NCBI GenBank assembly: GCA_963739455.1
Contig: CAVUAK010000003.1
Location: 224,001 to 288,000, forward strand
DNA length: 64,000 nt
DNA from: an uncultured Gemmatimonadales bacterium
Lineage (GTDB): Bacteria; Gemmatimonadota; Gemmatimonadetes; Gemmatimonadales; GWC2-71-9
Direction of reading: 5' to 3'
The position numbers and the translations under genes are program-made. The notes under the pieces are model-generated. The model had not been told where the DNA came from. It saw nothing but the letters and a program-made list of their open reading frames with translations, and ran no database searches. Of this stretch, positions 600 to 28,009 are shown piece by piece. Position 1 is the stretch's first letter; each line of letters opens with the position of its first letter.

Positions 600-621
600 G
601 AGTCAGGTTCCTCCGTGCAGG

Positions 622-2067: not shown

Positions 2068-2074
2068 CGTCAGT

Positions 2075-3133: not shown

Positions 3134-3135
3134 GG

Positions 3136-3462: not shown

Positions 3463-3473
3463 ATCATGCTCCT

Positions 3474-4177
3474 TTAGCGTGTCAGTTCCATCGCCTGCGA
3501 TGTGTAGAAGCCGCTGTGGATCCGCTCGCTCCGCCCCGCGTGCCAGTGCTGCAGTGCGCGATGCTGCTCCATGGCCCGTCGCAGCCCCGGCTCCGCCACC
3601 GGGACAATGCGGGGAGCCCGGTTGCCGCGCGGCAGCAGCGTGCCAACCGCGTGCATGGTCGCCAGCAGGGGCGTGCGCGGTGCGAAGGTGAACAGCAGCG
3701 ACTCGCCTGCGCGGCGCGACAGCCGGTCGAGCGTGTCGACCAGGTCGCTGGCATCGTAGTGAATGAGCGAATCCATCGCCACCACATGGTCGAAGGCGCC
3801 GAGCGACTCGCTCAACATGTCGCCCGACTCGAAGGTGACCAGTCGCCGCAGTTCGACGGGCAGCCGTTCCGCCGCCACCCGCACCAGGTTGGGCGACAGG
3901 TCCACTCCCACTACATGCGCCCCGCGCCGCGCCAGGTCAACCGCGAGCGCGCCGGTGCCACAGCCCGCGTCGAGCACCCGCCGTCCGGTCAGGTCGGCCG
4001 GGAGCCATCCGGCGAGGGTGGCCCGCATCCGGTCGCGTCCCTCGCGCACCGTGGAGCGGATCCTGCCGACCGGCGCCTCGGAGGTGAGCCGCGCCCATGT
4101 CTCGGCCGCCGTGCGGTCGAAGTACTCCTCGATCCACTCACGGCGTGCCAGGTAGGAACTGGTGCGCGGTGCCGCCA

Positions 4178-4178
<1 letters not shown>
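3474..4178 (-). CDS. bchM: Mg-protoporphyrin IX methyltransferase
   Basis: YFDRTAAETWARLTS, SAM motif VLDAGCGTG, MDSLIHY, FYTSQAMEL; start overlaps the bchL stop. Confidence 0.97.
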
Positions 4179-8686
<4,508 letters not shown>

Positions 8687-8712
<26 letters not shown>

Positions 8713-10285: not shown

Positions 10286-10287
10286 CG

Positions 10288-12153
<1,866 letters not shown>

Positions 12154-12173
12154 CTACGGCGCGGATGCGGAGG

Positions 12174-12244
12174 CGTCAAGCACTCTTGACGTAAATAGTT
12201 TCTGACACCAAGTTGACGGTGTCGGATGTGGCTGCCGCTTGACA
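12174..12244. promoter_or_regulatory. Cluster of PpsR/CrtJ boxes in the divergent bchF / aerR promoter
   Basis: CGTCAAGCACTCTTGACG (12174-12191), CGTAAATAGTTTCTGACA (12190-12207) and perfect TGT-N12-ACA TGTGGCTGCCGCTTGACA (12227-12244). Confidence 0.8.
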
Positions 12245-12321
12245 GGCGCCCGTTTGACGTCCATTTCAGACGCTGCTCACGAAGGAGTTCGCCCCACACC
12301 GGTGTTTCAGGAGGGCGTCCC

Positions 12322-13149
12322 GTGCCGGATCTCTTTTTCGGCGACAATTCCTCAATGACGGCCATGGTGGCGGCCAGCATTTCCCGCACAGCCAGGTCGC
12401 TGGCCAGGCGGGCGCCCCCACCGCCGGCTGAACCGGCCCTACCGGTGGATGTCTCGGAGGTGATCCCCGAGGATGTCCGGCGGTGGGCGTCGATGGCGGA
12501 TCAGGAGGCGGAACAGTGTGTGTGGCGGTTGCTGCAGCGGGGAATGACCGCGGAGGAGGTTTGCCTCGACGTGCTGACCACGGCGGCGCGACGGCTTGGG
12601 ACGCTCTGGGTCGAGGACCGCTGCACCTTCGTCGATGTCACGCTAGCCGTTACCCGCTTCCAGAACATCACTCACCGCCTCGGGCCGCACTTCAACAGTG
12701 TTGCCGAGCCGGGCTGCCGGGGCAGGGCACTGGTGGGCTCGGTTCCCGGTGAGCAGCACACCTTCGGTCTCAGCATGGTGGCGGAGTTCCTGAAGCGGGA
12801 CGGATGGGATGTTGTGCTGGCCGATGCGTCGCGCGACACGGCGGCCTTTGTGGCGCCACTCGCGGACAGCTGGTTTGACGTCGTGGCGATCTCGGCGGCC
12901 AACGACCGCGCCGAGAAGGGGCTGACGCGACTGCTGTCGAGCATCCGGCGCCGTGGACGGAACCACCAGGTGCGCGCCATCATCGGCGGAAGACTGGTCC
13001 AGGATCGGGATGGGCTGGTGGGGAGGGTGGGGGCCGATGGCTGGGCGGAAGACGCGAAGGCGGCGGTTGAACTGGCCCGTTCGCTAGGGCAGGCAACGCC
13101 ACGCACGCGGGGCCGGCGGGAGAAGGTGCAGGTAGACCGCACTTCTTGA
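12322..13149 (+). CDS. aerR: AerR/PpaA cobalamin-binding antirepressor/photoreceptor
   Basis: ARRLGTLWVEDRCTFVDVTLA helical domain and PGEQHTFGLSMVAEF (E-x-H-xx-G B12 motif); directly upstream of ppsR; GGAGG RBS before GTG 12322 (start uncertain). Confidence 0.88.
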   Translation: MPDLFFGDNSSMTAMVAASISRTARSLARRAPPPPAEPALPVDVSEVIPEDVRRWASMADQEAEQCVWRLLQRGMTAEEVCLDVLTTAARRLGTLWVEDRCTFVDVTLAVTRFQNITHRLGPHFNSVAEPGCRGRALVGSVPGEQHTFGLSMVAEFLKRDGWDVVLADASRDTAAFVAPLADSWFDVVAISAANDRAEKGLTRLLSSIRRRGRNHQVRAIIGGRLVQDRDGLVGRVGADGWAEDAKAAVELARSLGQATPRTRGRREKVQVDRTS

Positions 13150-13169
13150 CGGCATGTAAACATACTAAT

Positions 13170-14648
13170 ATGAGTCGGTTAGCTAAGCCGTTCGGCGTTC
13201 GAGTTGACACCGTGAACGAGGTACCCAATCAGGCAATGACGTCGATCCTGACCGCAGCTTCGGATATCGCCCTTGTGCTTGATCGTGCCGGAGTCATCCG
13301 GGACATCACGCTGGGGCAGTCCGATCAGCCACTTGTTGAGTCGAAGGCGTGGCTAGGTCACGGCTGGATCGACACCGTTACCATCGAGTCCCGCGCGAAG
13401 ATCACCGACATGCTGGCCGAGGCAGCGTCGCAGGGTGTTTCGCGACGTCGCCAGGTCAATCACGTGTCGGCAAGCGGTGCCGACATTCCGATCGTCTACA
13501 CCGCCGTGCGCATGGACGAGGCGCCCGGCAAGGTGGTGGCGATCGGCCGCGACCTGCGGGCCGTCTCCGCCCTGCAGCAGAGCCTGGTGGAGGCGCAGCA
13601 GTCGCTCGAGCGCGACTACTGGCGGATGCGCCACATCGAGACGCGCTATCGCCTGCTGTTCCAGGTGTCGACCGAAGCGGTGCTCATGATCGACGCCGGT
13701 ACCCAGAAGGTGATCGAGGCGAATCCTGCGGCGGCACAGCTGTTCGACCAGCCCGTCAAGCGCCTCGTCGGGCGGACCTTTCCCTTCGATATCGAGACGG
13801 CCAACGAGCCGGCAGTCGCCGAGCAGCTCGCGACAGTGCGTTCGCATGGGCGGGCTGATGATCTTGTCGTGCGGCTGCCCAACTCCGGCCGCAGCGTCAC
13901 GTTGTCGCTGGCGCTCGTTCGGCAGGACACCTCTACGCTCTTCCTGGTGCGGTTGCTGCCGGTGGTCGATCAGTCGGGCCCGGATGCGGGTCCTGCCTCG
14001 GCCGGTGCCGCCTTCAAGCTGCTCGAGTCACTGCCCGATGGGTTCGTCATCAGCGACGCGGACGGCCGCGTGCTGATGGCCAACCGCGCGTTCCTCGACA
14101 TGGTCGAACTGCCCACGCTGGAGCAGGCGCGTGGCCGCCTGCTGGGTCAGTGGGTGGGGCGCCCCGGGGCGGACGTCGGTCGGCTGCTCGCGACACTGCG
14201 TGAGCACGGTGTGGTGCGCCTGTTCGGCACCGCCCTCCGCGGCGATCTGGGCTCCTCCAGTGAGGTCGAGATCTCGAGCGTCGCCCTGCTGGAAGCCGCC
14301 GACATGCAGGTGGGTTTCCTCATTCGCGATGTTGGCCGCCGGCTCCTGCCGAGCCCCCGCGGCGCGCGCGACCTGAGCCAGGCGGTGGAGCAACTGACTT
14401 CGCTCGTGGGTCGCGTATCGCTCAAGAACCTGGTGCGCGACACGACGGACCTGGTGGAGCGGCACTTTATCGAGGCGGCGCTCGAGACCACCGATGACAA
14501 CCGGACGTCGGCCGCCGAGGTGCTCGGTGTCAGCCGGCAGAGCCTGTACATGAAGCTGAAGCGATACGGCCTGGGCGCCGATGCTGCGGATGCATCGAAC
14601 CAGGACGGCACGAACAACAAGGGCCGGAAGAGCACGCCGAAGAACTGA
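13170..14648 (+). CDS. ppsR: PpsR/CrtJ photosynthesis transcription regulator (3 PAS + Fis-type HTH), cysteine-free
   Basis: ASDIALVLD..G.I, WIDTVTIESRAKI, Q-linker LVEAQQSLERDYWRMRHIETRYRLLF, LVGRVSLKNLVRDTTD, DNRTSAAEVLGVSRQSLYMKLKRYG. Confidence 0.95.
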   Translation: MSRLAKPFGVRVDTVNEVPNQAMTSILTAASDIALVLDRAGVIRDITLGQSDQPLVESKAWLGHGWIDTVTIESRAKITDMLAEAASQGVSRRRQVNHVSASGADIPIVYTAVRMDEAPGKVVAIGRDLRAVSALQQSLVEAQQSLERDYWRMRHIETRYRLLFQVSTEAVLMIDAGTQKVIEANPAAAQLFDQPVKRLVGRTFPFDIETANEPAVAEQLATVRSHGRADDLVVRLPNSGRSVTLSLALVRQDTSTLFLVRLLPVVDQSGPDAGPASAGAAFKLLESLPDGFVISDADGRVLMANRAFLDMVELPTLEQARGRLLGQWVGRPGADVGRLLATLREHGVVRLFGTALRGDLGSSSEVEISSVALLEAADMQVGFLIRDVGRRLLPSPRGARDLSQAVEQLTSLVGRVSLKNLVRDTTDLVERHFIEAALETTDDNRTSAAEVLGVSRQSLYMKLKRYGLGADAADASNQDGTNNKGRKSTPKN

Positions 14649-14673
14649 GCCCGCGGCCACTCGGTCGCGGGCT
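14648..14673 (+). terminator. GC-rich hairpin after ppsR
   Basis: AGCCCGCGGCC-ACTC-GGTCGCGGGCT followed by a weak U tract. Confidence 0.5.
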
Positions 14674-14689
14674 ATTGCTTATCCCATAG

Positions 14690-14707
14690 TGTAAAGCCTT
14701 CATGACA
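14690..14707. promoter_or_regulatory. PpsR box overlapping the bchG start codon
   Basis: TGTAAAGCCTTCATGACA = TGT-N12-ACA. Confidence 0.85.
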
Positions 14708-15622
14708 GTAGCTGACGTACTAACCGTCACACAGTCAGGGCAAAGCGTCAGGACTCCCGCGCCGCGTACGGTGCTGGAGCTCTTCAAGCCGGTCACCTGG
14801 TTCCCGCCGATGTGGGCATTTGCCTGCGGCGTGGTCTCGTCAGGCGTGCCGCTGGCCTCGCACTGGGGCCTCTTGGCGCTTGGGGTCGTGCTCACGGGGC
14901 CACTCGTCTGCGGCACCAGCCAGGCGGTGAACGACTGGTTCGACCGGCACGTGGATGCGATCAATGAGCCGGGCCGTCCGATTCCGTCGGGGCGGATGCC
15001 GGGCACATGGGGGCTGACACTCGCGCTCGCGGGCACGCTCATCTCGATGATTGTCGGCCTCCAGCTTGGCCGCGCCGCCGCTGGTGCCACCGCACTGGGG
15101 CTTCTCCTGGCGTGGATCTACAGTGCGCCGCCGCTTCGGCTCAAGAACAACGGCTGGTGGGGCAATGCCGCGGTCGGTTTCAGCTACGAGGGCCTCGCGT
15201 GGGTGACCGGTGCCGCGCTGATGCTGAACGGCGCCGTGCCGCGTCCCGCGATCCTTGCCGCAGCGGTGCTCTATAGCATCGGCGCGCACGGCATCATGAC
15301 ACTGAACGACTTCAAGTCGATCGAGGGCGACCTCCGCATGGGCATCGGCTCGTTGCCGGCGCGCCTCGGCCCCGATCGTGCCGCGAAGGTTGCCTGCCTG
15401 GTGATGCTGGTGCCGCAGGTCGTCGTCATTGCGATGCTTGCGCTGACCGCGCACCCCGTTGCCGCGTTCCTCGTGACGGCGGTCGCCGTGGCCCAGGTGC
15501 CGCTGATGCGCCGGCTCCTGCAACGGCCCCGCGAGCTGGCGCCGTGGTACAACCAGACCGGTATCTCCCTCTACGTGTCGGGCATGATGGTCACGGCCGT
15601 GGCGCTGGGTTCGGTCTCGTGA
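14702..15622 (+). CDS. bchG: Bacteriochlorophyll synthase
   Basis: LFKPVTWFPPMWAF, SQAVNDWFDRHVDAINEPGRPIPSGR, GAHGIMTLNDFKSIEGD. Confidence 0.97.
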   Translation: MTVADVLTVTQSGQSVRTPAPRTVLELFKPVTWFPPMWAFACGVVSSGVPLASHWGLLALGVVLTGPLVCGTSQAVNDWFDRHVDAINEPGRPIPSGRMPGTWGLTLALAGTLISMIVGLQLGRAAAGATALGLLLAWIYSAPPLRLKNNGWWGNAAVGFSYEGLAWVTGAALMLNGAVPRPAILAAAVLYSIGAHGIMTLNDFKSIEGDLRMGIGSLPARLGPDRAAKVACLVMLVPQVVVIAMLALTAHPVAAFLVTAVAVAQVPLMRRLLQRPRELAPWYNQTGISLYVSGMMVTAVALGSVS

Positions 15623-16929
15623 ACCAGCTCTCATGGACCGGGGTGGCGCGACTTGGCCTGGTGCAGGCCTCGATCGGTGCCGTCGTCGTGCTCATGACAT
15701 CAACGCTCAACCGGATCATGGTGGTCGAGCTCGGGCTCGCAGCCGCGATTCCCGGTGCCCTCGTGGCACTGCACTTCGCGGTGCAGATGTTCTTCCGGCC
15801 ACGCCTCGGTTTCTGGTCGGATGCTGGTGGCCGGCGGACGCCGGTGATCCGGATGGGCATGGCGCTGCTCGGCTTCGGTGGGGCGGATGCGGTGGCGGCA
15901 ATCGCGCTCGTGCCGACCCACCGCGCGCTGGGCCTCGCGGCGGCAGCACTGGCCTTCGTCGTCATCGGCCTGGGCGTGAGTGCCGCGGGGACGCCGTTGC
16001 TGGCCATGCTCGCCGACCGGGTCAGCGGCGAGCGGCGCGGGCGGGCGGCGGCGATCGTGTGGCTGATGATGATCGCCGGGTTCGTGGTCACGACGCTCGT
16101 GGTTGGCCGGCTCATCGATCCGTTCTCGTTCTCCCGCCTCATGCTGGTGGCCATCGGCGTATCGGTGATGGCGTTCGTGGTGGCCTGGGTGGCGCTCGCG
16201 GGCCTCGAGGGCGCCGGACGGGCACCGATGGTGATGCCGTCGTCCGATTCATCGTCCTTCCGGTTCGCCCTCTCGACGGCATGGCGCGATCCAGCCACGC
16301 GCCGCTTCGCGATCTTCGTGTTCGTGGCGATGCTGGCGTACAGTGCGCAGGACCTGGTGCTGGAGCCGTTCGCTGGCAGCGTGTTCCAGCTGACGCCCGG
16401 GGAATCGACCAGGATCACGAGCGTCCACCAGGGCGGGATGCTCGTCGGCATGGTCCTCACCGCGGTGCTCTCGGCACGCTGGGGCAGCCTGCCGCGCTGG
16501 GCCGCGTTCGGCTGCGCTGCGTCGGCGCTGGCATTCGTGGCGCTCGCCATCTCTCCGCTGGTTGGCACCGTCGGGGCGCTCCGCGGGAGTGTCCTGGCAC
16601 TGGGCCTCGCAAACGGGACGTTCGCCATTGGCGCCATCGGCAGCATGATGGTGCGCGCGCGCGGCGGCCAGGCGGGGCTCCGGATGGGCGTCTTCGGTGC
16701 GGCGCAGGCCATCGCGTACGCGATCGGGTCGTTCATCGGCGCGGCAGGCAGCGACATCGGCCGCGCGGTCTCCGGGTCCGATGCGCGGGGCTATATGTCG
16801 GTGTTCGCGGCGGAAGGGGTGCTGTTCCTCGTGGCTGCGGTGCTGGCGTGGGATTCCTCGAGTCGCAAGCGCGAGTCGCTGGTCGACTCACGGAACGGTG
16901 GTGATGCCCTCATGGCGTCGCTCGCATGA
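15619..16929 (+). CDS. pucC: PucC/Bch2-family MFS protein
   Basis: LSWTGVARLGLVQASIGAVVVL.STLNRIMVVE, SDAGGRRTP, AQDLVLEPFAG; GTGA overlap with bchG. Confidence 0.9.
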   Translation: MNQLSWTGVARLGLVQASIGAVVVLMTSTLNRIMVVELGLAAAIPGALVALHFAVQMFFRPRLGFWSDAGGRRTPVIRMGMALLGFGGADAVAAIALVPTHRALGLAAAALAFVVIGLGVSAAGTPLLAMLADRVSGERRGRAAAIVWLMMIAGFVVTTLVVGRLIDPFSFSRLMLVAIGVSVMAFVVAWVALAGLEGAGRAPMVMPSSDSSSFRFALSTAWRDPATRRFAIFVFVAMLAYSAQDLVLEPFAGSVFQLTPGESTRITSVHQGGMLVGMVLTAVLSARWGSLPRWAAFGCAASALAFVALAISPLVGTVGALRGSVLALGLANGTFAIGAIGSMMVRARGGQAGLRMGVFGAAQAIAYAIGSFIGAAGSDIGRAVSGSDARGYMSVFAAEGVLFLVAAVLAWDSSSRKRESLVDSRNGGDALMASLA

Positions 16930-18152
16930 CGGCACTCTTTCCAGTGCGCGGCCTCCCCACGCTCGATGCGGCGCCGCTGCCGCTTCCGCGTCATCGCGAT
17001 CTCTGCACCGACTGCGGCATCTCGCGCACGAGCGCGCCGGAGCGCTGTGGCCGTGCCTGCCAGTTCATCAACCCGCGCTACGCTGAGCTGGAACTGCAGG
17101 CCCATGGTCGCGCGCGCGATGCCGCGCGGGGCGATGAGGCGCTCTTCGGCACCTATCTCGAGATGCGCCGTGCGCGCCTGGCACGACGGTCGGCGGGCGC
17201 GCAGTGGAGCGGGATCACCACCCGCATCGGCGAGCAGTTGCTTGCGACCGGGGCGGTGCAGGCGGTGCTCGCGACGGCCGCCGACGCCTCCGATCGCTGG
17301 AAGCCACGCCCGGTGCTGGTGCGCGACGCCGCCGGGATGGCGGAGTGCCGTGGCATGAAGATGGGATTCTCGCCGGTGCTGGCACTGCTCGACGAGGTGG
17401 CGCGGCTGGGCCTCACGCGCATCGCGGTGATCGGTATCCCGTGCCAGGTGCATGCGTTGCGCGCGCTCGAGAAGGAACTCGGGCTCGAGAAGCTGTACAT
17501 CATCGGGACGCCATGCAGCGACAACACCACCACGGAGAATTTCCACTCGTTCCTGCGCCGGCTCACCCCGGAGCCGGAGCGTGTGACGTACTGCGAGTTC
17601 CAGCCCGACTACAACGTGGAGCTGCGGTTTGACGACGGTCGTGTCAGCCGGATCCCGTTCATCAAGCTGCCGATCGCCGACCTGCCGGCGGATTTCTTCC
17701 CGCTCACCTGTCGCGCCTGCTTTGACTACACCAACGCGCTGGCGGACGTGACGGTGGGCTACATGGCGGGGGCGGGCGACCAGTGGCTGATCGTGCGGAA
17801 CGCGCGCGGCCGCGAGCTCGTGGCGCTGCTGGAGGACGAGCTGGTGACCTCAGACCTCGGGTCAGGCGGCCATCGCCGCGCCGCCGTGCGTGGATTCCTC
17901 GGCAACCTGCAGCGCGGCGCCAACGGACTGCCGCTGCGCCGCGCCCCCCGGTGGGCCCGACCGCTGATCGCCTGGGCGATGCCGACCTTCGGCCCGCGCG
18001 GGCTGGAGTTCGCGCGGAGCCGCGTGGAGATGAAGCAACTGGAGGGGATTGTTGCGTTGCGGAAGCACCGGCCGCGGCGGCTGTTGCGGATGGTGCCTGA
18101 CTTCGCGTGGGCCACCGCGGTGCGATACGGACTGGCTGGGGGGAACGCATGA
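16926..18152 (+). CDS. bciB: Ferredoxin-dependent 8-vinyl (divinyl) reductase, FrhB-like
   Basis: CTDCGIS..CGRACQF, GAQWSGITT, GIPCQV, GTPCSDN and TCRACFDYTNALADVTVGYM Fe-S/FAD motifs of the BciB family. Confidence 0.88.
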   Translation: MTALFPVRGLPTLDAAPLPLPRHRDLCTDCGISRTSAPERCGRACQFINPRYAELELQAHGRARDAARGDEALFGTYLEMRRARLARRSAGAQWSGITTRIGEQLLATGAVQAVLATAADASDRWKPRPVLVRDAAGMAECRGMKMGFSPVLALLDEVARLGLTRIAVIGIPCQVHALRALEKELGLEKLYIIGTPCSDNTTTENFHSFLRRLTPEPERVTYCEFQPDYNVELRFDDGRVSRIPFIKLPIADLPADFFPLTCRACFDYTNALADVTVGYMAGAGDQWLIVRNARGRELVALLEDELVTSDLGSGGHRRAAVRGFLGNLQRGANGLPLRRAPRWARPLIAWAMPTFGPRGLEFARSRVEMKQLEGIVALRKHRPRRLLRMVPDFAWATAVRYGLAGGNA

Positions 18153-19339
18153 CAGAGCCGCAGGTTGACGTCCTGGTGGTCGGAGGTGGCCCTGCCGGGT
18201 CGACGGCGGCATGGGACCTGGCCCGCAAGGGACACTCCGTGCTCCTGCTCGACCGCGACGGGCGGGTGAAGCCGTGCGGCGGGGCGGTGCCACCGCAGTT
18301 GATGACCGAGTTCGACGTGCCGTCGTCGCTCCTGGTGAACCGGGTGGACTGTGCGCGCATGGTGTCGCCGGTGGGGCGAGCGGTGGATATCCCGATCGAG
18401 AACGGCTACGTCGGCATGGTCGATCGCGAAGTGTTCGACGAGTGGCTGCGGCAGCGGGCGGTGGCGGTGGGTGCCGAGCGGCGCACCGGCATCTTCACCG
18501 GGCTCACGACCAACGCCGATGGTTCCGCCACGGTGACGTATCGCGATGGTAATTCGCGCTCTGATCGTACCGTGGAGGTGCGCGCCCGCATGGTGGTGGG
18601 CGCCGACGGGGCACTGTCGGCGGTGGCCCGCACCGCGATTCCCTGTTCCAGGGATGCGCGGTTCGTGTTCGCGTACCACGAGATCGTGGAGTCACCCGCC
18701 TCCTGGAACACCGAGGAGGCAAGCCGCTGCGACGTGTACTACGACGGTGGCCTCTCGCCCGACTTCTACTCCTGGGTGTTTCCGCACGGCGCCACGACGA
18801 GCATCGGCACCGGCAGCATGATCAAGGGATTCGACATGCGCGGCGCAGTATCGCGCCTGCGCGAGCGCACCGGCCTGACGAGCGTCAGCACCATGCGCCG
18901 GGAGGGTGCTCCCATTCCGCTGGTGCCGCTCAAGCGGTGGGACAACGGGCGCAACGTGGTGCTTGCCGGCGACGCATCCGGCGTGGTGGCGCCGGCCTCG
19001 GGAGAGGGGATCTACTACGCCATGGCGGGTGGCCGTGCCGCCGCCGATGCCATCGACGCCGCGCTCGAGCAGCGGGATGCGCGCCAGCTGGCCAATGCCC
19101 GGCGCGCCTTCATGCGGCAGCATGGGCAGGTGTTCCGGGTACTCAGCATCATGCAACGCTACTGGTACAGCACGGACGGACGCCGGGAACGGTTCGTGGC
19201 CATCTGCCGCGACCGCGACGTGCAGCGCCTCACCTTCGAGGGTTACATGCACAAGCGCCTCGTGCGCGCGGAGCCACTGGTTCACCTCCGCATCTTCTTC
19301 AAGAATATCGGGCACCTGAGCGGCCTGGTGCCGGTCTGA
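18149..19339 (+). CDS. bchP: Geranylgeranyl-bacteriochlorophyll reductase
   Basis: DVLVVGGGPAGS, KPCGGAVPP, SPDFYSWVFPHG, GVVAPASGEGIYYA. Confidence 0.97.
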   Translation: MTEPQVDVLVVGGGPAGSTAAWDLARKGHSVLLLDRDGRVKPCGGAVPPQLMTEFDVPSSLLVNRVDCARMVSPVGRAVDIPIENGYVGMVDREVFDEWLRQRAVAVGAERRTGIFTGLTTNADGSATVTYRDGNSRSDRTVEVRARMVVGADGALSAVARTAIPCSRDARFVFAYHEIVESPASWNTEEASRCDVYYDGGLSPDFYSWVFPHGATTSIGTGSMIKGFDMRGAVSRLRERTGLTSVSTMRREGAPIPLVPLKRWDNGRNVVLAGDASGVVAPASGEGIYYAMAGGRAAADAIDAALEQRDARQLANARRAFMRQHGQVFRVLSIMQRYWYSTDGRRERFVAICRDRDVQRLTFEGYMHKRLVRAEPLVHLRIFFKNIGHLSGLVPV

Positions 19340-20232
19340 TGGGCGCCGCCACGCTACCGTCCCGGGCGATGGTGCAGGACGCCTCGCTCAAGGCGTTCGC
19401 CGCCGCGCACCTTCCGGCCGTCGAGCAGGGTCTCGCCGATGCCTGCGCCGGGCTTGCCGGGGCCTCGCCGCGCATGCAGCACGCGGTGCTCGATGCCGTC
19501 GATCCCAACGGCGGTGAGGCGCATCGCTGGCGCCCTCTGCTGGTGCTCGCGGCGGCCGATGCCTGTGGGACGGCGCCGCATCACGCACTCCACGCCGCGG
19601 TGGCGATCGAGCTGACCCACACGGCGTCGCTCGTGCTCGACGACCTCCCCTGCATGGATGACGCGCCGCTCCGCCGCGGTCGCCCGGCCACACACTGCCA
19701 GGTGGGCACGGCGCCCGCCATCCTCATCGCCGTGGGCCTGCTGGGTCGCGCGGTGGAGCTGCTGGGTCGCTCCCCCGGCAACGTGGCGCAGCTCTCGACC
19801 GAGTGGGGCGCGGCCGTGGGACTGCCGGGCATGGCCGGCGGCCAGGCCATGGACCTGCGCGACCGGGCCGGCGAGGCGCTGAGCGGCGATGCGCGGCGAC
19901 TCTATCGCCGGAAGACAACGGCACTGGCGGCGTTCGCCGCACGCGCCGGCGGGCTCGTGGCCGGCGCACCGACCAGCCTGCTGGATGCCCTGGGTCGCTT
20001 CGGCCATCACCTCGGCTGGGCCTATCAGCTTCGCGATGACGTCGCCGATATCGAGGAGGATGGTCGCCTCGTCGCGGTGGAACAGACGGCGGCACGACGC
20101 GCGCGCCTCGTGGTGCGTGCGGAGCGCGCGCTCCGTACCGGTGGATGGAGCCGGCCGGCCAGCGCCGAGGCGCTCGCGGCCGCGGCATGGCGCATTGCCG
20201 GCGTGACAGCGGTAGGGCAGCGTGCGCAGTGA
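19339..20232 (+). CDS. crtE: Geranylgeranyl diphosphate synthase (polyprenyl synthetase)
   Basis: First Asp-rich motif LVLDDLPCMDD..RRGRP, GMAGGQAMDL, second motif YQLRDDVAD; TGATG coupling to bchP. Confidence 0.85.
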   Translation: MGAATLPSRAMVQDASLKAFAAAHLPAVEQGLADACAGLAGASPRMQHAVLDAVDPNGGEAHRWRPLLVLAAADACGTAPHHALHAAVAIELTHTASLVLDDLPCMDDAPLRRGRPATHCQVGTAPAILIAVGLLGRAVELLGRSPGNVAQLSTEWGAAVGLPGMAGGQAMDLRDRAGEALSGDARRLYRRKTTALAAFAARAGGLVAGAPTSLLDALGRFGHHLGWAYQLRDDVADIEEDGRLVAVEQTAARRARLVVRAERALRTGGWSRPASAEALAAAAWRIAGVTAVGQRAQ

Positions 20233-20724
20233 TGCACGCGGACGCCTGGTGGTTCCCGGTGCTCCTGGCACTGGGGTGGGGCCTCGTGCTGGGTGCGGTG
20301 GGCGGTTGGCTGACCACGCTGGACGCGTGGTACCGTCAGCTGACGCTTCCCCGCGTGGAAGCCACCCGACTGGGCGTTCGGTCCGGTGTGGACGACGATC
20401 TTCCTCTGCGCCGGCACCGCATTCGTGCTGGCGTGGAAGGGCGCCGGCCAGTCGGGCATGTCGCGCAGTGCGCTCATGATCGTCTTCGTCGCGAACGGCG
20501 TGTGCAACATGCTCTGGAGCTGGCTCTTCTTCCGGCGGCACCGGCCGGATCATGCGTACGTGGAGTCGTACCTCCTCTGGATCTCCATCCTGGCCATGCT
20601 CATCGTCGCCGGGTCGATGTCGCCGTGGGGTTACCTGCTGATCGCGCCGTATCTCGTCTGGGTCACCATCGCCACGGCGCTGACGCGCGCCGTCGTGCGA
20701 CTGAATGGTCCCTTTACCGGGTGA
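20232..20724 (+). CDS. tspO: TspO tryptophan-rich sensory protein; one frameshift near 20350 (probable sequence error)
   Basis: Removing one C from CTTCCCCGCG restores WYRQLTLPAWKPPDWAFGPVWTTIF...NMLWSWLFF...LIAPYLVWVTIA. Confidence 0.88.
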
Positions 20725-20728
20725 CTGC

Positions 20729-22015
20729 GTGCTGATCTCCGTCGCACTCGACTTCCGGCAGGCCCCGATCACGGTTCGGGAGCGCTACTTCCTCTCCGAC
20801 GCGAGGGTGGCGGCGCTCTATGATGCGCCGCCGTCACCACTGGTGCGGGAGCTGGCGCTGCTGTCCACGTGCAACCGGCTCGAGCTGTACGCCTGGTCGG
20901 AGGCCCAGTCGCCGGGCGCGCTGGAACAGGCGTGGTGCGAGCTGGTGGATCGCTGGGCGGGTCAGGACGGGGATGAGCGCGACGGCCTCGCGGCGCTGGT
21001 GGTGCGCCGGCACGGCGACGAGGTCGCATCGCACCTGCTGCGTGTGGCATCGGGCCTCGAGTCACAGGTACTGGGCGACTCGCAGATCCTCGGGCAGGTG
21101 CGGCAGGCATACCGGGACGCGTCCCGCGCGGGCATGGTGGGCACGGCGTTGCATCGGCTCTTCGGTGCGGCCCTGCACGCGGCGAAGCGGGTGAAGCACG
21201 AAACGGGTTTGGTGGGAGGGCGCCACTCGGTGGGTGCTGAGGCGGCGTCGCTCGCCGCGCGGCGGCATGGGCCGCTCGCCAAGCGCCGCTGCATCGTGGT
21301 CGGTTGCGGCAAGACCGGTGAGCGGGCGGCGCGCCAGCTGGTCAAGTTCGGCGTCGCCGATCTCGTGCTCATCAACCGCAGCCTGCCGCGTGCGGAAGTG
21401 CTCGCGCGCGACCTGTGGGGCAGGGCCGCAACGTTCGACCGGCTGCATCGTGAACTGGCCCGGGCGGACATCGCCATCATCGCCACGAGCGCGGAGCAGC
21501 CTCCGGTGCGGGCCGCGTCCCTCCGCTTCTGCCGGGATGATGCTGGCACGACGGGGCATCCACTCATGCTGATCGACCTCTCCCTGCCACGGAACGTGGA
21601 GCCCGAGGTCGGGGGGCTGCCGGGAATTACCTTGCTCGACCTCGACGCACTGCACCTGCCGATGGCGCAGGCGGAGGCGCTGCGGCAGGCGGCGGTACCG
21701 CTCGCCGAGGCGATCGTGCAGGAGGAGCTCGCGACGTACAGTGCATGGGTCCGGGCCGAGGTGGCGCGCGAGGCGCTGCGTCCCCTGCACCAGGCACTGA
21801 CGGCGGTGTGCCGCCGTGAGCTGGGCTATGTAGGGGCGAAGAGCGGGGCAGACCTCGACCGGGCGGCGGAACGGATCGTGGCGAAGCTGATGGCCCGACC
21901 GATGACGGTGCTGCGGGGTGCCACCGAGCGGGGCGAGTCGCTGGAGGCCGCGGCCCTCACGTTGCGTCACCTCTTCGGGGCGCACGGCCTGGCGATTCCC
22001 GCCGAAGCGGAATGA
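20729..22015 (+). CDS. hemA: Glutamyl-tRNA reductase (C5 ALA pathway)
   Basis: LLSTCNRLELY (catalytic Cys), HLLRVASGLESQVLGDSQILGQVRQAY, Rossmann VVGCGKTG, IDLSLPRNVE. Confidence 0.92.
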   Translation: MLISVALDFRQAPITVRERYFLSDARVAALYDAPPSPLVRELALLSTCNRLELYAWSEAQSPGALEQAWCELVDRWAGQDGDERDGLAALVVRRHGDEVASHLLRVASGLESQVLGDSQILGQVRQAYRDASRAGMVGTALHRLFGAALHAAKRVKHETGLVGGRHSVGAEAASLAARRHGPLAKRRCIVVGCGKTGERAARQLVKFGVADLVLINRSLPRAEVLARDLWGRAATFDRLHRELARADIAIIATSAEQPPVRAASLRFCRDDAGTTGHPLMLIDLSLPRNVEPEVGGLPGITLLDLDALHLPMAQAEALRQAAVPLAEAIVQEELATYSAWVRAEVAREALRPLHQALTAVCRRELGYVGAKSGADLDRAAERIVAKLMARPMTVLRGATERGESLEAAALTLRHLFGAHGLAIPAEAE

Positions 22016-22968
22016 GCGTGCTGCGCATTGGCACGCGAGCGAGCGCCCTGGCGCTCTGGCAGACCAACCGGGTGTGCGAAGCCCTTGCACGCCGGGGCCG
22101 TGCCACGGAGATCATCGAGATCAGCACCACCGGCGATATCCACGCCGAGGCGTCCATCGGGCAGCTGGCCGATCCCGCGCTGTTCACCCGCCAGCTCGAT
22201 GAGGCCATGCTGGCCTCGCGCATCGACCTCGCAGTGCATTCCCTCAAGGACCTGCCGACGCAACTGCCAGAGGGCATCCTGGTCGCCGCGGTGAGCGCGC
22301 GCGAGGACGCGCGCGATGCCCTGGTGACCCGCGGTGGGAAGTTCGCCGACATCCCGGCGGGCGGAACGATCGCCACCAGCAGCCTGCGGCGGCGCGCGCA
22401 ACTGCTCCGGGCCCGGCCCGACCTGGTGATTACCGAGATTCGCGGCAACGTGGGCACCCGGCTGTCCAAGCTCGAACAGAATGCAGGTTGGAGCGCGACG
22501 GTGCTGGCAGCGGCGGGATTGATACGGCTGGGCATGGAGGAGCGCATCTCGGAGCGGCTCTCGTTCGAGCTCATGCTCCCGGCGCCGGGACAGGCGGCGA
22601 TGGCAGTAACGGCACGCTTCGATGACATCAGCTCCATCGACGCGGTCCGCCGCGCGGTGCACGACGAGCGGAGTGCGCTCTGTGTGCAGGTCGAGCGGGC
22701 GATGCTGCATGACCTCGAGGGAGGCTGCGAGGTGCCCGTGGCGGCGCTGGCGGTCTTCGAGGATGCCAAGGGATGGTCGATGCGCTGCCGGGCGCGAGTG
22801 GCATCCCTCGATGGGCGGCAGGTGGCGGAAGCGGACGTGATCCGCTCCGTGCGCGGCAGCGATGATGCCGACACCTTCGGTCGCGAACTCGCGGCGGAGC
22901 TCCGCGACAAGGGTGCGGGACGCATCCTCGACGAGCTCGGGCTGGCGGCCGGCCGGGGGCGACCGTGA
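22012..22968 (+). CDS. hemC: Hydroxymethylbilane synthase (porphobilinogen deaminase)
   Basis: RIGTRASALALWQ, DLAVHSLKDLPT, TSSLRRRAQL, IRGNVGTRL, PAPGQA, LEGGCEVPV. Confidence 0.96.
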   Translation: MSVLRIGTRASALALWQTNRVCEALARRGRATEIIEISTTGDIHAEASIGQLADPALFTRQLDEAMLASRIDLAVHSLKDLPTQLPEGILVAAVSAREDARDALVTRGGKFADIPAGGTIATSSLRRRAQLLRARPDLVITEIRGNVGTRLSKLEQNAGWSATVLAAAGLIRLGMEERISERLSFELMLPAPGQAAMAVTARFDDISSIDAVRRAVHDERSALCVQVERAMLHDLEGGCEVPVAALAVFEDAKGWSMRCRARVASLDGRQVAEADVIRSVRGSDDADTFGRELAAELRDKGAGRILDELGLAAGRGRP

Positions 22969-23708
22969 GCAGCCGCACGCGCGTGATCTTCACCGGTGCC
23001 GCGGGAGCGCTGGCAGGACTCGGCGCCGCAGTGGAAGCGGACGGTGCACAGTTCACTGCGTGGCCGCTGATCTCGTTCACCGGGGCCATCGACCCGACGC
23101 TGCTCGAGGAAGCGCTTGGTCGGCTCGACCAATACGCGGCGGTGTGCATCACGTCGCCCCGTGCCGCCGGGGCGGTGGCGCGCGTAGTGGCTCAGCATGA
23201 CCTCGAACTGACTTTGGCACCGGTGGTGTGGACCAGCCCTGCATGCGAAGCAGTGCTGCGGCCGCTGTTTCCCCGGATCGAGGTGCTGCCGCGCGACCGG
23301 AGCACCGACGGTCTTGGCGCCGCGCTCGCCGAGACGATGCTGCGGCACGGGGTGCAGTCACCGGTGCTGTTTCCCTGCGGTGACCTGCATCGCGATGAGC
23401 TGGTGACTCGGCTCCGCGATGCCGGTCGCGTCGTGGACGTCGTGGAGGCGTATCGTACCGTCGTGGCCGAGCCGAGCCGCGCGCAGGCGGTGATGGCCGC
23501 TGCCGACGTCGTGGTGGTAACGAGCCCCAGCGTGGCGCGACTGATCGCGTCGCTCGAGCACTGCGAGCGACCCGCCCTCGTGGTGATCGGGCCCACCACG
23601 GCCGATGAGGCGACCCGCCACGGCTGGCCGCCGGACGCCGTGGCGGCATCACCCGCGGTCCCGGCCGTTGCGGCGGCCATTCACTCCTTGCTGCCGAGTT
23701 ATTCATGA
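22965..23708 (+). CDS. hemD: Uroporphyrinogen-III synthase
   Basis: CITSPRA, VEAYRTV, VTSPSV and IGPTTA motifs; located between hemC and hemE. Confidence 0.88.
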   Translation: MSSRTRVIFTGAAGALAGLGAAVEADGAQFTAWPLISFTGAIDPTLLEEALGRLDQYAAVCITSPRAAGAVARVVAQHDLELTLAPVVWTSPACEAVLRPLFPRIEVLPRDRSTDGLGAALAETMLRHGVQSPVLFPCGDLHRDELVTRLRDAGRVVDVVEAYRTVVAEPSRAQAVMAAADVVVVTSPSVARLIASLEHCERPALVVIGPTTADEATRHGWPPDAVAASPAVPAVAAAIHSLLPSYS

Positions 23709-24748
23709 TCGCGGTCGAGAAGAACGAACTGCTGCTGCGCGCATGCGCCGGCGAGCCAGTGGAGCGACCCCCGGTGTGGATGATGCGCCAGGCGGGACGA
23801 TATCTCCCGGAGTACCGCGCTGTGCGGGCGCGCAGCGATTTTCTCACCATGGTGCGGACGCCGGAGCTGGCAGTGGAGGTGACGCTCCAGCCGGTCGACC
23901 TCGTGGGCGTCGACGCAGCGATCATCTTCAGCGACATCCTGGTCATCCCGGAAGCGATGGGCATGCCGCTCACGGTCGATGAGGGCGTGGGCCCGCGCTT
24001 CGGCAGCACCATCCGCTCGGCCGCCGAGCTGGCGCAGCTGCGCGACCCGATGGCCGACGGCGCGCTCGCGTACGTCACCGACGCCATCCGGCTGGCCCGT
24101 CGCGAGCTGGACGGCCGGGTTCCCCTGATCGGGTTTGCCGGCGCGCCGTGGACGCTGGCCTCATACATGATCGAGGGCCAGGGCACCAAGAGCTTCAGCG
24201 TGGCGAAGCGAGTGCTGGTGCAGGCACCGGCGCTGGCGCACCAGTTGCTCGGCCGTCTTGCCGAAGCGGTGGGCCGGTTCCTCTGTGCCCAGGTCGAGGC
24301 CGGCGCCCAGGTGGTGCAGCTCTTCGATTCGTGGGCTGGCGCACTGGGTCCCGACGACTATCGCACCTTCGCGCTGCCGTACCTGGCGAAGGCGGTGGCA
24401 ATTGCACGGACCGCGGGCGCGCCGGTGATCGTGTTCTCCCCCGGCGCGGGCTGGGCGCTATCCGAAATCCTGGAAGCCACCCAGGCCGACGTCGTCGGGG
24501 TGGATTGGCATGTGGCACCCGCGACCGCGCGCCGGCAGCTTGGGCCGCAGCAGGCGCTCCAGGGCAACTTCGACCCATGCTGGCTCTATGGTACGCCGGC
24601 GGAGATCCGCCAGCGCGCGCATGCGATGCTCGATGCCTTCGGGACGGGGCCGCTCATCGCCAACCTCGGCCACGGCATCCTTCCCGATACGCCAGTGGCC
24701 AATGCTCGGGCGTTCATCGATGCGGTGAAGGAATGGCGCAGCCGATGA
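23705..24748 (+). CDS. hemE: Uroporphyrinogen decarboxylase
   Basis: PVWMMRQAGRYLPEYR, DAAIIFSDIL, IGFAGAPWTLASY, NLGHGI. Confidence 0.98.
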   Translation: MIAVEKNELLLRACAGEPVERPPVWMMRQAGRYLPEYRAVRARSDFLTMVRTPELAVEVTLQPVDLVGVDAAIIFSDILVIPEAMGMPLTVDEGVGPRFGSTIRSAAELAQLRDPMADGALAYVTDAIRLARRELDGRVPLIGFAGAPWTLASYMIEGQGTKSFSVAKRVLVQAPALAHQLLGRLAEAVGRFLCAQVEAGAQVVQLFDSWAGALGPDDYRTFALPYLAKAVAIARTAGAPVIVFSPGAGWALSEILEATQADVVGVDWHVAPATARRQLGPQQALQGNFDPCWLYGTPAEIRQRAHAMLDAFGTGPLIANLGHGILPDTPVANARAFIDAVKEWRSR

Positions 24749-25695
24749 ACGAGGTGCTGGCCGAGACCACGATGCGGCAACAGGCCACGGCCTGGGCGGC
24801 ATCGGTGCACGATGCTGCCACGGCGTTCTTTGCCAGCGCCGACGAGGGCGGGATGTTCGTCGAGGAGGTGTGGGAGCGTCCTGGCGGCGGTGGCGGCGTG
24901 TCCCGGCGCCTCGACGAGGGGAGCACCTTCGAGCGGGCAGGGGTCAACCGATCGGCGGTCGAGGGAGCGCTCGACCGGGAGCTCGCCGTGCGACTGGCGC
25001 TGCCACCTGAGGCCGCCGAGGGCTGCCGGTTCTTCGGAACTGGCGTGAGCCTGGTGGTGCATCCCCGGAGTCCGCGTATCCCCACGGTGCACCTCAATGT
25101 CCGCTATTTCGAGCTCACCAACCCCGCTGGCGACGTAATCGATGCCTGGTTCGGGGGCGGGACCGACCTGACGCCGACGTACCCGACGCCAGACGACGCC
25201 CGGCACTTTCATCGGGTGCTGGCGGAGACGTGTGCCCGCCACGATGCGGGGTATTACCCCAGGTTCAAGGGGTGGTGCGACCGGTATTTCCGGAACACCC
25301 ATCGGGACAACGAGGCGCGTGGTGTGGGGGGAATCTTCTTTGACCACCTGCGAGTGGCCGAACACGGATTTGAGCCGCTGATGGCGTTCGCGGGTGCGGT
25401 GGGTCGGGTGCTGCCCGAGGCCTATGGTCCGATCGTGGACCGCTGGCGCGGAGCCCCCTACGGCGAGTCCGAGCGCCGGCTCCAGCTGTTCCGGCGCGGT
25501 CGCTATGTTGAATTCAACCTTTTGCACGACCGGGGCACTACTTTCGGTCTCCAGAGTGGAGCCCGGACTGAGAGCGTCCTCATGAGCCTCCCCCCACTGG
25601 CACGGTGGGACACCGATGCCGCGATGGAGTCCGATGCCCTGGCCCAGGCGCTCCGCGCCATGCTCGTCCCTCAAGATTGGCTTGCCCCGACCTGA
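24745..25695 (+). CDS. hemF: Oxygen-dependent coproporphyrinogen III oxidase
   Basis: WERPGGGGG, GVSLVVHP..PTVHLNVRYF, WFGGGTDLTP, RGVGGIFFD, RRGRYVEFNL.DRGT.FGL, ESVLMSLPP. Confidence 0.97.
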   Translation: MNEVLAETTMRQQATAWAASVHDAATAFFASADEGGMFVEEVWERPGGGGGVSRRLDEGSTFERAGVNRSAVEGALDRELAVRLALPPEAAEGCRFFGTGVSLVVHPRSPRIPTVHLNVRYFELTNPAGDVIDAWFGGGTDLTPTYPTPDDARHFHRVLAETCARHDAGYYPRFKGWCDRYFRNTHRDNEARGVGGIFFDHLRVAEHGFEPLMAFAGAVGRVLPEAYGPIVDRWRGAPYGESERRLQLFRRGRYVEFNLLHDRGTTFGLQSGARTESVLMSLPPLARWDTDAAMESDALAQALRAMLVPQDWLAPT

Positions 25696-25700
25696 ATCTG

Positions 25701-25741
25701 CGTCATGTGTCTTGACATGACGGTGTCAACGCGGCATTACA
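25701..25741. promoter_or_regulatory. bphP upstream region: palindrome plus PpsR box
   Basis: CGTCATGT-N6-ACATGACG (25701-25722, contains TTGACA) followed by TGTCAACGCGGCATTACA (25724-25741, TGT-N12-ACA), ending 9 nt before the ATG. Confidence 0.8.
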
Positions 25742-25750
25742 TACGAGCCT

Positions 25751-28009
25751 ATGTCCGGTAACCATCCAAGCCCTGCCTTTGGCACGGCTGACCTTACCAA
25801 CTGCGATCGGGAACTCATTCAGCTCCCCGGCTCCGTTCAGCCGCACGGGGTCCTGCTGATCCTGCATCCTGAGCACCTGCGCGTCCTGCAGGCCTCCTCG
25901 AATGCCGAGGCGATCCTGGGTTCGTGGGGGGCATCGCCGCTGGGCAAGACCATCGATTCCCTGGACCCTGAGCTCGGTCTGCTGATCCGCCGCCTTCGGC
26001 ACAGCGACGAGCTGGCGGGGATCGTGCCTGCCGTGGCCCGTGCCGAGGATGAGAATGGGGTCCGGACGCTGGAGGCGATGATCCACCGGCTTCCCCGCGA
26101 GGGCATCGCCGTTGAGCTCGAGCCGGTGGCGCCCGACCCGGCAGGACGCTCGGCCGCTGAGGTGGCGCGGCAGGTATCCCAGATGCTCACCGATGGGATC
26201 GCTGCCATCAGCGTGGCGCCATCCCATGCGGCCCTGTATGGCGAGGTTGTGCGCGTCATGCGCGCCCTCTGCGGGTACGATCGCGTGATGGTGTACAAGT
26301 TTGATCCTGAGGGACACGGCGAAATCGTCGGCGAGGCGCGCCTCAACGACCTCGAGCCCTTCCTCGGCCTGCACTATCCCTCGAGCGACATTCCGCATCA
26401 GGCACGCGAGCTCTACCTGCGCAACCGGGTCCGCGTGCTGGTCGATGTCTCGTACCAGCCGGCGCAGCTCTTCCCGCGGCTCTCACCGATCACCGGAGCG
26501 GAAGTGGACATGTCGATGTCCTCGCTCCGCAGCATGTCGCCGCTGCACTTGCAATACCTCTCGAACATGGGTGTTCGCGCCACGCTGGTGACCTCGCTCG
26601 CCATCGGCGACCGGCTCTGGGGCCTGATTGCCTGTCACCACTATGCGCCCCGCTGGCTGCCGTACGAGGTGCGCGCCGCCGCCGGTATCCTGTCCGAGAT
26701 GGTGGCAGCGCGTCTTGCGGCTCTCGACAGCGTCGCGGCGACCGAGACGGAACACATCGTCCGCACCCTGGAGGACCAGGTGGTGGACTCGCTGGCTACC
26801 ACCGGCGACTGGCGCAATGCGCTGTTCGCCACGCCGCACCTGCTCCTGCAGACCGTGCGCGCGACCGGTGCTGCGCTGGTGCACGACGGGGCCCTCATCA
26901 CCACCGGCGAAGTGCCGTCGTCGGACGACATCCGGGCCGTGGTGCGCTGGCTGGAGGAGCAGCATCCCGGCGAGCCGGTGGTGCGAAGTGACGCGATGAG
27001 TCGCTCGGAGCCAACCCTCCGGCACATCGCAGGAGCGGCTGCCGGCGTGATGGCCATCGCGCTGTCGGCCAGGTCGCGAGACTACCTGCTCTGGTTCCGT
27101 CCGGAACAGCACCAGACGATCCGGTGGGCCGGTGACCCGCGCAAGCCGGTCGACCCCAATGACCCGAAGCAGCTGTCGCCGCGACGCTCCTTCGCGGTGT
27201 GGACCGAGGTGACGCGCGGCTCCTGCCGGCCGTGGACCGAGTCCGAAGAGGGCACGGCGCGCGCGATCCGCTCGTCGCTGGTGGACATGGTGCAGCAGGT
27301 GCAGGCGGTGCGGGTGCTGATCGCGCAGGAGCAGTTCTCGCGCATGATGCAGGTGGTGCAGCTCGCGTCCGAACCCACGCTCATCATGAGCCGCGCGGGC
27401 CAGGTCGTGCTGGTGAACGACGCCTTCCGGGCACTGCTGGGGCCGATGCCCACCGACCTGACGTCGGCCGAGGACCTGTCGCGGCTGCTGGGAGATGACG
27501 GCGCGGTGAACGCCATGCTCACGGCGGTGCGGGCGGAGCAGCGTCCGTGGGCCGGGGAGCTGCTCCTCACGACGCCGGACGGTGAGCGGGTGCCGCTCGC
27601 GGTGCGGGCTGATCCGGTGCCGGGCGATGACGGGATGGAACTGGGCTGCATCATCTTCGCGTCCGACGAGCGTCCGCGCCGGAAGGCGGAGGCGGCGCAG
27701 CAGCGCGTGCAGGACAGCCTGCTCGAGGCGCATCGTCGCTCGACCCGCTCCACACCCGTCGACGCGGACACGGCGCGCGGTTTCGGCGCGATGATGGATG
27801 CGATCCTGAGCACGGCGCGCCGTTCGTTCACGGACATCAGCGGCGAACCAGGAACGCACCCGCTGCCCTCGGCGCTGGCGAGCGTCGAGGACATGACGCG
27901 CCGCGCCGCCGCGATGGCGCTGCACCTCGAGGGGTATACGGCGGCGCGCCGCAAGCGGCAGTCCGTGGTCGTGAAGGATCCCGCTGGCGGGTCAGGGCAG
28001 CGCGGCTGA
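25751..28009 (+). CDS. bphP: Bacteriophytochrome, BphP1-type (PAS-GAF-PHY-PAS plus helical output, no histidine kinase)
   Basis: DLTNCDRELIQLPGSVQPHG (biliverdin Cys), YDRVMVYKF, YPSSDIPHQAR, LRSMSPLHLQYL, WAGDP..LSPRRSF; C-terminal PAS and about 100 aa helical tail without H-box or HATPase motifs. Confidence 0.93.
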   Translation: MSGNHPSPAFGTADLTNCDRELIQLPGSVQPHGVLLILHPEHLRVLQASSNAEAILGSWGASPLGKTIDSLDPELGLLIRRLRHSDELAGIVPAVARAEDENGVRTLEAMIHRLPREGIAVELEPVAPDPAGRSAAEVARQVSQMLTDGIAAISVAPSHAALYGEVVRVMRALCGYDRVMVYKFDPEGHGEIVGEARLNDLEPFLGLHYPSSDIPHQARELYLRNRVRVLVDVSYQPAQLFPRLSPITGAEVDMSMSSLRSMSPLHLQYLSNMGVRATLVTSLAIGDRLWGLIACHHYAPRWLPYEVRAAAGILSEMVAARLAALDSVAATETEHIVRTLEDQVVDSLATTGDWRNALFATPHLLLQTVRATGAALVHDGALITTGEVPSSDDIRAVVRWLEEQHPGEPVVRSDAMSRSEPTLRHIAGAAAGVMAIALSARSRDYLLWFRPEQHQTIRWAGDPRKPVDPNDPKQLSPRRSFAVWTEVTRGSCRPWTESEEGTARAIRSSLVDMVQQVQAVRVLIAQEQFSRMMQVVQLASEPTLIMSRAGQVVLVNDAFRALLGPMPTDLTSAEDLSRLLGDDGAVNAMLTAVRAEQRPWAGELLLTTPDGERVPLAVRADPVPGDDGMELGCIIFASDERPRRKAEAAQQRVQDSLLEAHRRSTRSTPVDADTARGFGAMMDAILSTARRSFTDISGEPGTHPLPSALASVEDMTRRAAAMALHLEGYTAARRKRQSVVVKDPAGGSGQRG

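Follow-up and report, generated by a model that had tools for sequence, protein, structure and literature searches.

A Gemmatimonadales photosynthesis cluster with a predicted porphyrin route of its own, in a genome without a recognised ferrochelatase

The window analysed here is a stretch of 64,000 nucleotides from an uncultured Gemmatimonadales bacterium (contig CAVUAK010000003.1 of assembly GCA_963739455.1; the genome is called G000 below). It carries part of a photosynthesis gene cluster that continues beyond the window on the upstream side, as far as G000:C3:203.1 kb, and has hem genes at both ends; no known ferrochelatase was found in the genome. As a preliminary description of the window had stated, eleven plus-strand genes run in the order bchG-pucC-bciB-bchP-crtE-tspO-hemA-hemC-hemD-hemE-hemF (Table 1). 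The ten junctions are -4, -4, -4, -1, -4, +4, -4, -4, -4 and -4 nt, with GTG at 20729 taken as the hemA start, and these overlapping or near-adjacent junctions join the hem block and the bchG operon into one fused run. Genes were named by NCBIfam or Pfam profile cut-offs unless stated otherwise. The layout, with convergent bchFNBHLM and bchCXYZ-puf and a reversed bchO between bchZ and puf, is that described for Gemmatimonadota-type photosynthesis clusters (PMC7844134, PMC8547001; all papers cited by PMC number are covered in part).

At the other end, about 21 kb before the window, hemB-hemL-hemY-crtB-methyltransferase-bchI-bchD-puhE stand behind tandem perfect PpsR boxes (C3:203110, 203135), which places the Mg-chelatase genes bchID beside hem genes. 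Here hemB, the hemY-like oxidase, crtB and hemL were profile-scanned, and the bch, puf and puh names came from translations and relatives. The two end operons encode the predicted enzymes from Glu-tRNA to 5-aminolevulinate (ALA; HemA, HemL), then to porphobilinogen (HemB), uroporphyrinogen III (HemC, HemD), coproporphyrinogen III (HemE), protoporphyrinogen IX (HemF) and protoporphyrin IX (HemY-type oxidase). These steps are established biochemistry, and by gene assignment the two ends jointly span the route from glutamate to protoporphyrin IX. The cluster hem genes are the sole copies found in G000; second copies were sought and none was found, so the duplication proposed earlier is not supported. 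The full far-end layout was found at nine loci including G000, with a perfect box in eight and two one-mismatch boxes in the ninth. A perfect box ahead of hemB was present at 10 of 21 hemB loci (G000 included), all 10 of them cluster-linked. Genus g15 has hemA-E-F-Y, then bphP and hemC-D-B-L.

Table 1. Predicted features of the bchG-to-hemF region and its flanks (window coordinates)
Feature	Position	Strand	Basis or remark
Part of photosynthesis cluster (bchF-N-B-H-L, lhaA)	1..12389	-	Names from translations and relatives' matches, no hidden Markov model scans
aerR/ppaA, B12-binding antirepressor	12226..13149	+	PF02310; true start probably later, ~12358
ppsR repressor	13146..14648	+	TIGR02040, 469.5 bits (cut-off 275.4)
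Terminator-like 11-pair hairpin 3' of ppsR	14648..14673	+	Pattern scan; weak: 7 found vs 4.5 in shuffles
Tandem PpsR site	14690..14733		Perfect TGT-N12-ACA at 14690-14707 over bchG ATG; one-mismatch box at 14716-14733; 8-bp gap
bchG, bacteriochlorophyll synthase	14702..15622	+	Above NCBIfam cut-off
pucC-family major facilitator superfamily protein	15619..16929	+	PF03209
FrhB-family protein ("bciB")	16926..18152	+	PF04422, PF04432; which we take to be probably BciB 8-vinyl reductase
bchP, geranylgeranyl reductase	18149..19339	+	TIGR02023
Polyprenyl (geranylgeranyl diphosphate) synthase, crtE-like	19339..20232	+	PF00348; below CrtE equivalog cut-off
tspO	20229..20724	+	Pfam TspO; frameshifted at ~20343 in the G000 assembly, intact in close relatives
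hemA, glutamyl-tRNA reductase	20729..22015	+	TIGR01035
hemC, hydroxymethylbilane synthase	22012..22968	+	TIGR00212
hemD, uroporphyrinogen-III synthase	22965..23708	+	PF02602 (HEM4)
hemE, uroporphyrinogen decarboxylase	23705..24748	+	TIGR01464
hemF, oxygen-dependent coproporphyrinogen oxidase	24745..25695	+	NF003727
Single PpsR box ahead of bphP, perfect	25724..25741		Pattern match; perfect in 2/12 loci
bphP, bacteriophytochrome (PAS-GAF-PHY-PAS)	25751..28009	+	Domain matches; 55 nt past hemF

PpsR is an oxygen- and light-responsive repressor. The perfect PpsR box on the bchG ATG, pointed out before, was confirmed and proved to be half of a tandem site; both boxes are identical in the metagenome contig L171. 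Of 24 bchG loci compared (G000 counted), 20 have a perfect box between -200 and +40 nt relative to bchG, with three of these boxes sitting 130-175 nt upstream of the estimated start. The genome-wide background was 260 of 15013 tiles of 240 nt, and the predicted box at bchG is thus more than chance. Of the eight tandem sites in the whole genome, three belong to the cluster, and both fully perfect pairs are among these three. A paired TGT-N12-ACA at the promoter, conserved among loci, is the mark of a PpsR-regulated operon, and it was found here. No perfect box was detected near hemA (0/28 loci), hemC (0/18), hemE (0/25) or hemF (0/26). Since the tandem site at bchG is conserved and no box precedes hemA-F, PpsR control of hemA-F is plausible, and the photosynthetic regulation proposed in the preliminary description stands as a prediction from sequence alone. 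A sigma70 promoter scan over 12000-28500 gave zero matches anywhere and is hence uninformative on internal promoters. Genus g62 (L029:478, L037, L040) has a perfect box at the bchG start and another at bchC, more sites than the single one given for Gemmatimonas phototrophica.

The hemA product was identified as glutamyl-tRNA reductase (GluTR; TIGR01035, 283.9 bits, cut-off 209.55). ALA synthase (TIGR01821) did not pass in G000, the best score being 289.8 against a cut-off of 338.55 and far from the cluster; the earlier assignment to the C5 route was correct. HemA homologs contained the GlutR_N, NAD(P)-binding and dimer domains PF05201, PF01488 and PF00745. The catalytic T47-C48-N49-R50 (TCNR), and G192 and G197 of the NADPH-binding GCGKTG motif, were invariant across 14 alignment rows. 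The Glu of the GE-x-Q motif has a role in GluTR substrate binding; the cluster clade has Asp117 (GD-x-Q) at this position, whereas both solved GluTR sequences have Glu. The segment (window 21068-21085, residues ~114-119) reads GD-x-Q/H in the cluster clade and GE-x-Q in most GluTRs. It is usable as a marker of phototrophic Gemmatimonadota, although a HemA from Hymenobacter and some further rows have Asp here as well.

In phylogenetic trees, the cluster-type HemA, HemC and HemE each formed a clade of their own, apart from host-type copies (Shimodaira-Hasegawa-like approximate likelihood ratio support 100), and HemB and HemL were not separated from host copies in their small trees. Distances of the Hem proteins correlated with those of BchP (rho 0.62-0.83, HemA 0.78; the pairs are not independent). 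In trees without betaproteobacterial phototrophs, the HemA clade of the cluster type grouped neither with host-type copies nor with the two gammaproteobacterial rows included. All 15 metagenome loci of this clade with upstream DNA adjoin crtE, tspO or bch genes; the context of its deepest-branching members is limited to one 2.2-kb contig, L177. Among 20 proteins looked up (18 of the cluster clade), three clusters carried an organism name, all Gemmatimonadota, and the nearest named relatives of G000 are Gemmatimonadales metagenome-assembled genomes (MAGs). Plasmid and chromid matches reached only ~30-35% identity for HemA, 42-50% for HemE and 41-52% for HemF. In the related genome G008, the host marker is close to G000 (86% DNA identity, vs ~75% for G002/G005); its cluster HemA groups with G002/G005, and an approximately unbiased test rejected the genus clade (p=0.0003). 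This disagreement between host marker and HemA tree suggests that the whole block moves between lineages.

To see how far the link extends, we used an even sample of 301 Gemmatimonadota genomes, with bchP in 16, G000 among them; the sample may contain published strains and so is not independent of the literature, and most relatives compared are MAGs. Tallies take in the unpublished genomes G082 and G202 (G000's family, f1), G177 (f2, the second family compared) and G120 (overall hemA count), whose publication needs the depositors' permission. hemA lay within a few genes after bchP in 14 of the 15 other bchP genomes, and the fifteenth contig ends first. Among 17 HemA loci, bchP was upstream in 13 and too little upstream DNA was available in four; the full hemA-C-D-E-F was present in 11. 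The bchP-hemA link is also present in remote MAGs from soda lakes (L019, L020). In G. phototrophica AP64, bchP (GEMMAAP_RS06465) is followed after 25 nt by GluTR hemA (RS06460) and then hemE, hemF and hemG (PMC11406998 supplement). After 2 h of strong light its log2 changes were -1.45 for bchP, -1.38 for hemA, -1.73 for hemE, -2.21 for hemF and -2.13 for hemG, and the unlinked hemB, hemC and hemL stayed within 0.2 log2 (PMC11406998, Table S3). The fusion thus extends a gene order that the published annotation of the type species already contains, and the novelty earlier suggested for it is not supported: the bchP-hemA link is standard, and hemA-E-F-G after bchP in G. phototrophica is largely the case that had been foreseen as its refutation. 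The five-gene hemACDEF block, the hemB-L-Y operon and a ferrochelatase-less phototroph were described nowhere in the texts covered; figures and a picture supplement of PMC8547001 may show the arrangement.

No known enzyme for iron insertion was found. In the genus of G000, hemH was found in two of 12 genomes (G002, G005) and not in G000, G006 (97% complete) or G008 (99%). Six diverse ferrochelatase queries against G000 gave nothing better than E 0.015, and sensitive tblastn revealed no hemH remnant. CbiX, AhbA/B and CbiK were each 0/5 (G000, G006, G008, G001, G003), ChdC was 0/5 in phototrophs, one CysG-N query had zero matches, and the sole HemN-like match was 25% identical. Two host loci were closed mid-contig in G000. 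At one, a kinase-regulator pair is followed by hemH in G002/G005 and by an entire host hem operon in G021; in G000 the pair abuts an unrelated gene, and 10 of the 12 genus genomes lack hemH there. The other holds ccsA-cysG-hemA in G033 (ccsA-hemA in G280) before galE-tolQ, and in G000 ~200 bp replaces these genes ahead of galE-tolQ. Nine phototroph genomes with a completeness rating of 95-100% yielded no hemH. In family f1, hemH was found in 70 of 72 non-phototrophs with hemA vs 0/4 phototrophs, related genomes whose contrast does not count as four independent events, and 46 of 125 had neither hemA nor hemH. Where g62 genomes and G005 have hemH, it forms a small separate cassette with a second, divergent hemA-like gene, which has TCHR in g62 (L095, L096, L051, L094). 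Several non-phototrophs (L072, L240-L245, L247) have an orphan hemA, mostly as ccsA-(cysG-N)-hemA-galE-tolQ with no other hem gene adjacent.

G000 has a considerable predicted demand for heme, with three matches to COX1, a PufC bearing four CxxCH, a heme oxygenase and a CcmF-type motif. At G000:C1:1872-1882 kb, multiheme cytochromes c with 16 and 18 CxxCH are clustered next to a CcmF-type motif. Within the genus, bchP, cluster-type hemA and hemB co-occur in the same five of 12 genomes; in the seven non-phototrophs hemA and hemB were not found, four of these being only 60-83% complete. hemC and hemE were not found in 3/3 tested non-phototrophs (90-95% complete), which yet have 3-4 COX1 matches each.

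We give a probability of about 0.6 to the explanation that this is a self-contained, mobile pigment-supply cluster with its own porphyrin route in a heme-scavenging host; the ring built in G000 is probably meant for bacteriochlorophyll, with heme being taken up from outside. The unexpected part, a complete cluster porphyrin route next to the apparent lack of any known ferrochelatase, has good comparative support among the genomes searched. On this reading, heme synthesis was probably lost in the host lineage, which would import heme, and the cluster-borne route would feed Mg-chelatase alone. Each end operon may be a single PpsR-repressed transcript, and PpsR, with AerR and perhaps BphP, would shut both hem operons together with the bch genes; the block would have been transferred as a unit among Gemmatimonadales lineages. 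Repressing the sole hem genes would be affordable because heme comes from outside, and useful because surplus protoporphyrin without an iron sink would be phototoxic. External heme would remove the paradox of the only hemA-F genes standing behind a repressor, and the tight coupling of the operons would be explained because free protoporphyrin has no iron sink. The wider proposal, that many phototrophic Gemmatimonadota are bacteriochlorophyll-making heme auxotrophs which pass cluster protoporphyrin IX to Mg-chelatase only, scavenge the heme required by their reaction-centre cytochrome and oxidases, and carry a plug-in moving between genera, we regard as evenly balanced.

Several points weigh against a heme-scavenging host with a mobile, PpsR-controlled block. 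No heme importer was recognised, as no G000 TonB receptor reaches the heme-receptor cut-off, and an HmuV-like ATP-binding cassette system (G000:C1:330-335 kb) was rejected because the cobalamin riboswitch ahead of it marks a B12 importer. Two genus-shared TonB receptors, far below the heme cut-off, were likewise rejected. The distribution of hemH is patchy: it occurs in 12 of 29 other phototroph handles (two of which look like one assembly) besides G002 and G005, and the f2 control is weak, with hemH in 26 of 45 non-phototrophs and 6 of 11 phototrophs. To these are added the relatedness of the four f1 phototrophs, the indel errors and 83.7% completeness of G000, and the far-end operons of G008 and G101, which lack hemY (no search for another oxidase was made). 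Mobility was judged with one host marker, in a test chosen after tree inspection. For G. phototrophica, PMC11406998 gives one PpsR site in the cluster, doubts PpsR control and names hemEFG as a separate operon adjoining the cluster.

The large heme demand of COX1, PufC, the 16-18 CxxCH proteins, the CcmF-type motif and heme oxygenase, together with the failure to find an importer, could instead mean that the cluster route also supplies heme, via an unrecognised ferrochelatase or the side activity of another chelatase. Nineteen of 45 f2 non-phototrophs with hemA and no hemH point the same way. We consider this unlikely, however: the genus must already get heme externally, because its non-phototrophs keep heme-copper oxidases without the ring-building genes searched, and a BchH paralog (CobN-like) is not present. 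The seven hemA-only non-phototroph loci examined (six of the f2 nineteen, one f1) have no adjacent hem gene and look like pathway erosion. That hemH is merely missing from incomplete metagenome assemblies would fit the completeness of G000, the many MAGs among its relatives and the small separate cassette in which hemH often lies. It is quite improbable, given the nine nearly complete phototrophs without hemH, the two host loci closed mid-contig and the detection of hemH by the same search in nearly all comparable f1 non-phototrophs.

The hem genes could also be mere neighbours of the cluster with a constitutive promoter and no PpsR control, which is compatible with any reading of the heme supply. 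A transcript of 11 kb would otherwise be required, the sigma70 scan, empty throughout, leaves room for internal promoters, and PMC11406998 describes a weak, transient regulation and a hemEFG operon. We hold this doubtful, as junctions overlap throughout, tandem boxes are conserved at bchG and hemB, and in G. phototrophica the linked hem genes follow bchP and the unlinked ones are flat (PMC11406998). A further alternative, built on the capture or duplication proposed in the preliminary description, is that the cluster recently captured or duplicated a host C5 operon, in an arrangement absent from known Gemmatimonas. For this speak the occurrence of hemC-hemD in the block, and of hemB-L at the far end, mainly in f1-like genomes; HemB and HemL, not apart from host copies, may be later additions. 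The cluster-specific HemA, HemC and HemE clades are old, G000 has no second copies, bchP-hemA-hemE-F-G exists in G. phototrophica (PMC11406998), the link occurs in L019 and L020, and HemA tracks BchP distances. Recent capture is therefore very improbable as a whole, and for hemA, hemE and hemF it is largely refuted.

Some features of the surroundings were also observed. The extra tspO base is absent from 5/5 related metagenome contigs and the closest genome; because hemL and hemY in G000 show similar private +1 bases, the tspO frameshift is likely an assembly error. The Pfam matches of the bacteriophytochrome include no kinase domain, and a heme oxygenase homolog, located on another contig in G000 (G000:C1:922.0-922.7 kb), adjoins bphP in L013 and L041. 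A TonB-dependent receptor gene (window 28596-30800) right after bphP is present in the closest relative and falls below the heme-receptor threshold. The S-adenosylmethionine methyltransferase gene between crtB and bchI (L136:7813-8796; G000:C3:207812-208798) is conserved in f1-like clusters. In L151:10123-13051, hemB and its PpsR box abut an oppositely oriented bchB, the cluster being rearranged or misassembled. Minus-strand genes with type IV pilin-like N-termini, judged by eye, lie at 34798-38704. Five tRNA genes (His, Trp, Glu-CTC, Glu-TTC, Lys) are located at 57799-58348; the two tRNA-Glu genes among them, whose products are the GluTR substrate, are separated from the operon by 32 kb, a placement that is probably coincidental.

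It is generally assumed that chlorophototrophs have both tetrapyrrole branches, and the point where heme and bacteriochlorophyll synthesis diverge is a classic site of control. If the proposal of a scavenging host is true, a phototroph with the Mg branch only would be an exception among them. It would explain how the cluster works in Gemmatimonadota hosts without heme synthesis or with a coproporphyrin route, and even a porphyrin-less host could become phototrophic by gaining it. Addition of heme might then help cultivation. The boundary of the Gemmatimonadota cluster would be widened to hem genes omitted from the published descriptions, in the parts covered.

G000 resembles aquatic heme auxotrophs in having heme enzymes without a complete synthesis route (PMC12381374); none of the examples given there (Planktophila, Rhodoluna, Fimbriicoccus, Verrucolacustris) is said, in the parts covered, to make protoporphyrin for bacteriochlorophyll without ferrochelatase. 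Gemmatimonadota bchP-frhB-bchG clusters share with G000 the FrhB-family gene in the bchG-bchP operon and the superoperon orientation (PMC8547001, PMC9426454); in the passages covered, hemA, hemE and porphyrin genes go unmentioned. G. phototrophica AP64 and G000 have in common ppaA-ppsR-bchG-pucC-bchP followed by GluTR, hemE and hemF, and convergent bchFNBHLM and bchCXYZ-puf; in AP64 the linked hem genes are transiently light-repressed (PMC11406998). Unlike G000, it has hemB, hemC, hemD and hemL elsewhere and flat, hemG after hemF, and hemH; in G000 hemH was not found, hemC-D are in the operon, hemB-L-Y head the bchID operon, and bciB, crtE, tspO and bphP are added. In Alphaproteobacteria, ALA is formed by ALA synthase, and heme is made as well. 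In the PpsR regulons of Rhodobacter sphaeroides and Rubrivivax gelatinosus, TGT-N12-ACA pairs lie 8-9 bp apart, as at the bchG of G000, and in R. sphaeroides PpsR binds upstream of hemE (PMC4344238, PMC4452267). G000 differs from these regulons in the hemB box pair, 7 bp apart, and in having its hem genes inside the cluster.

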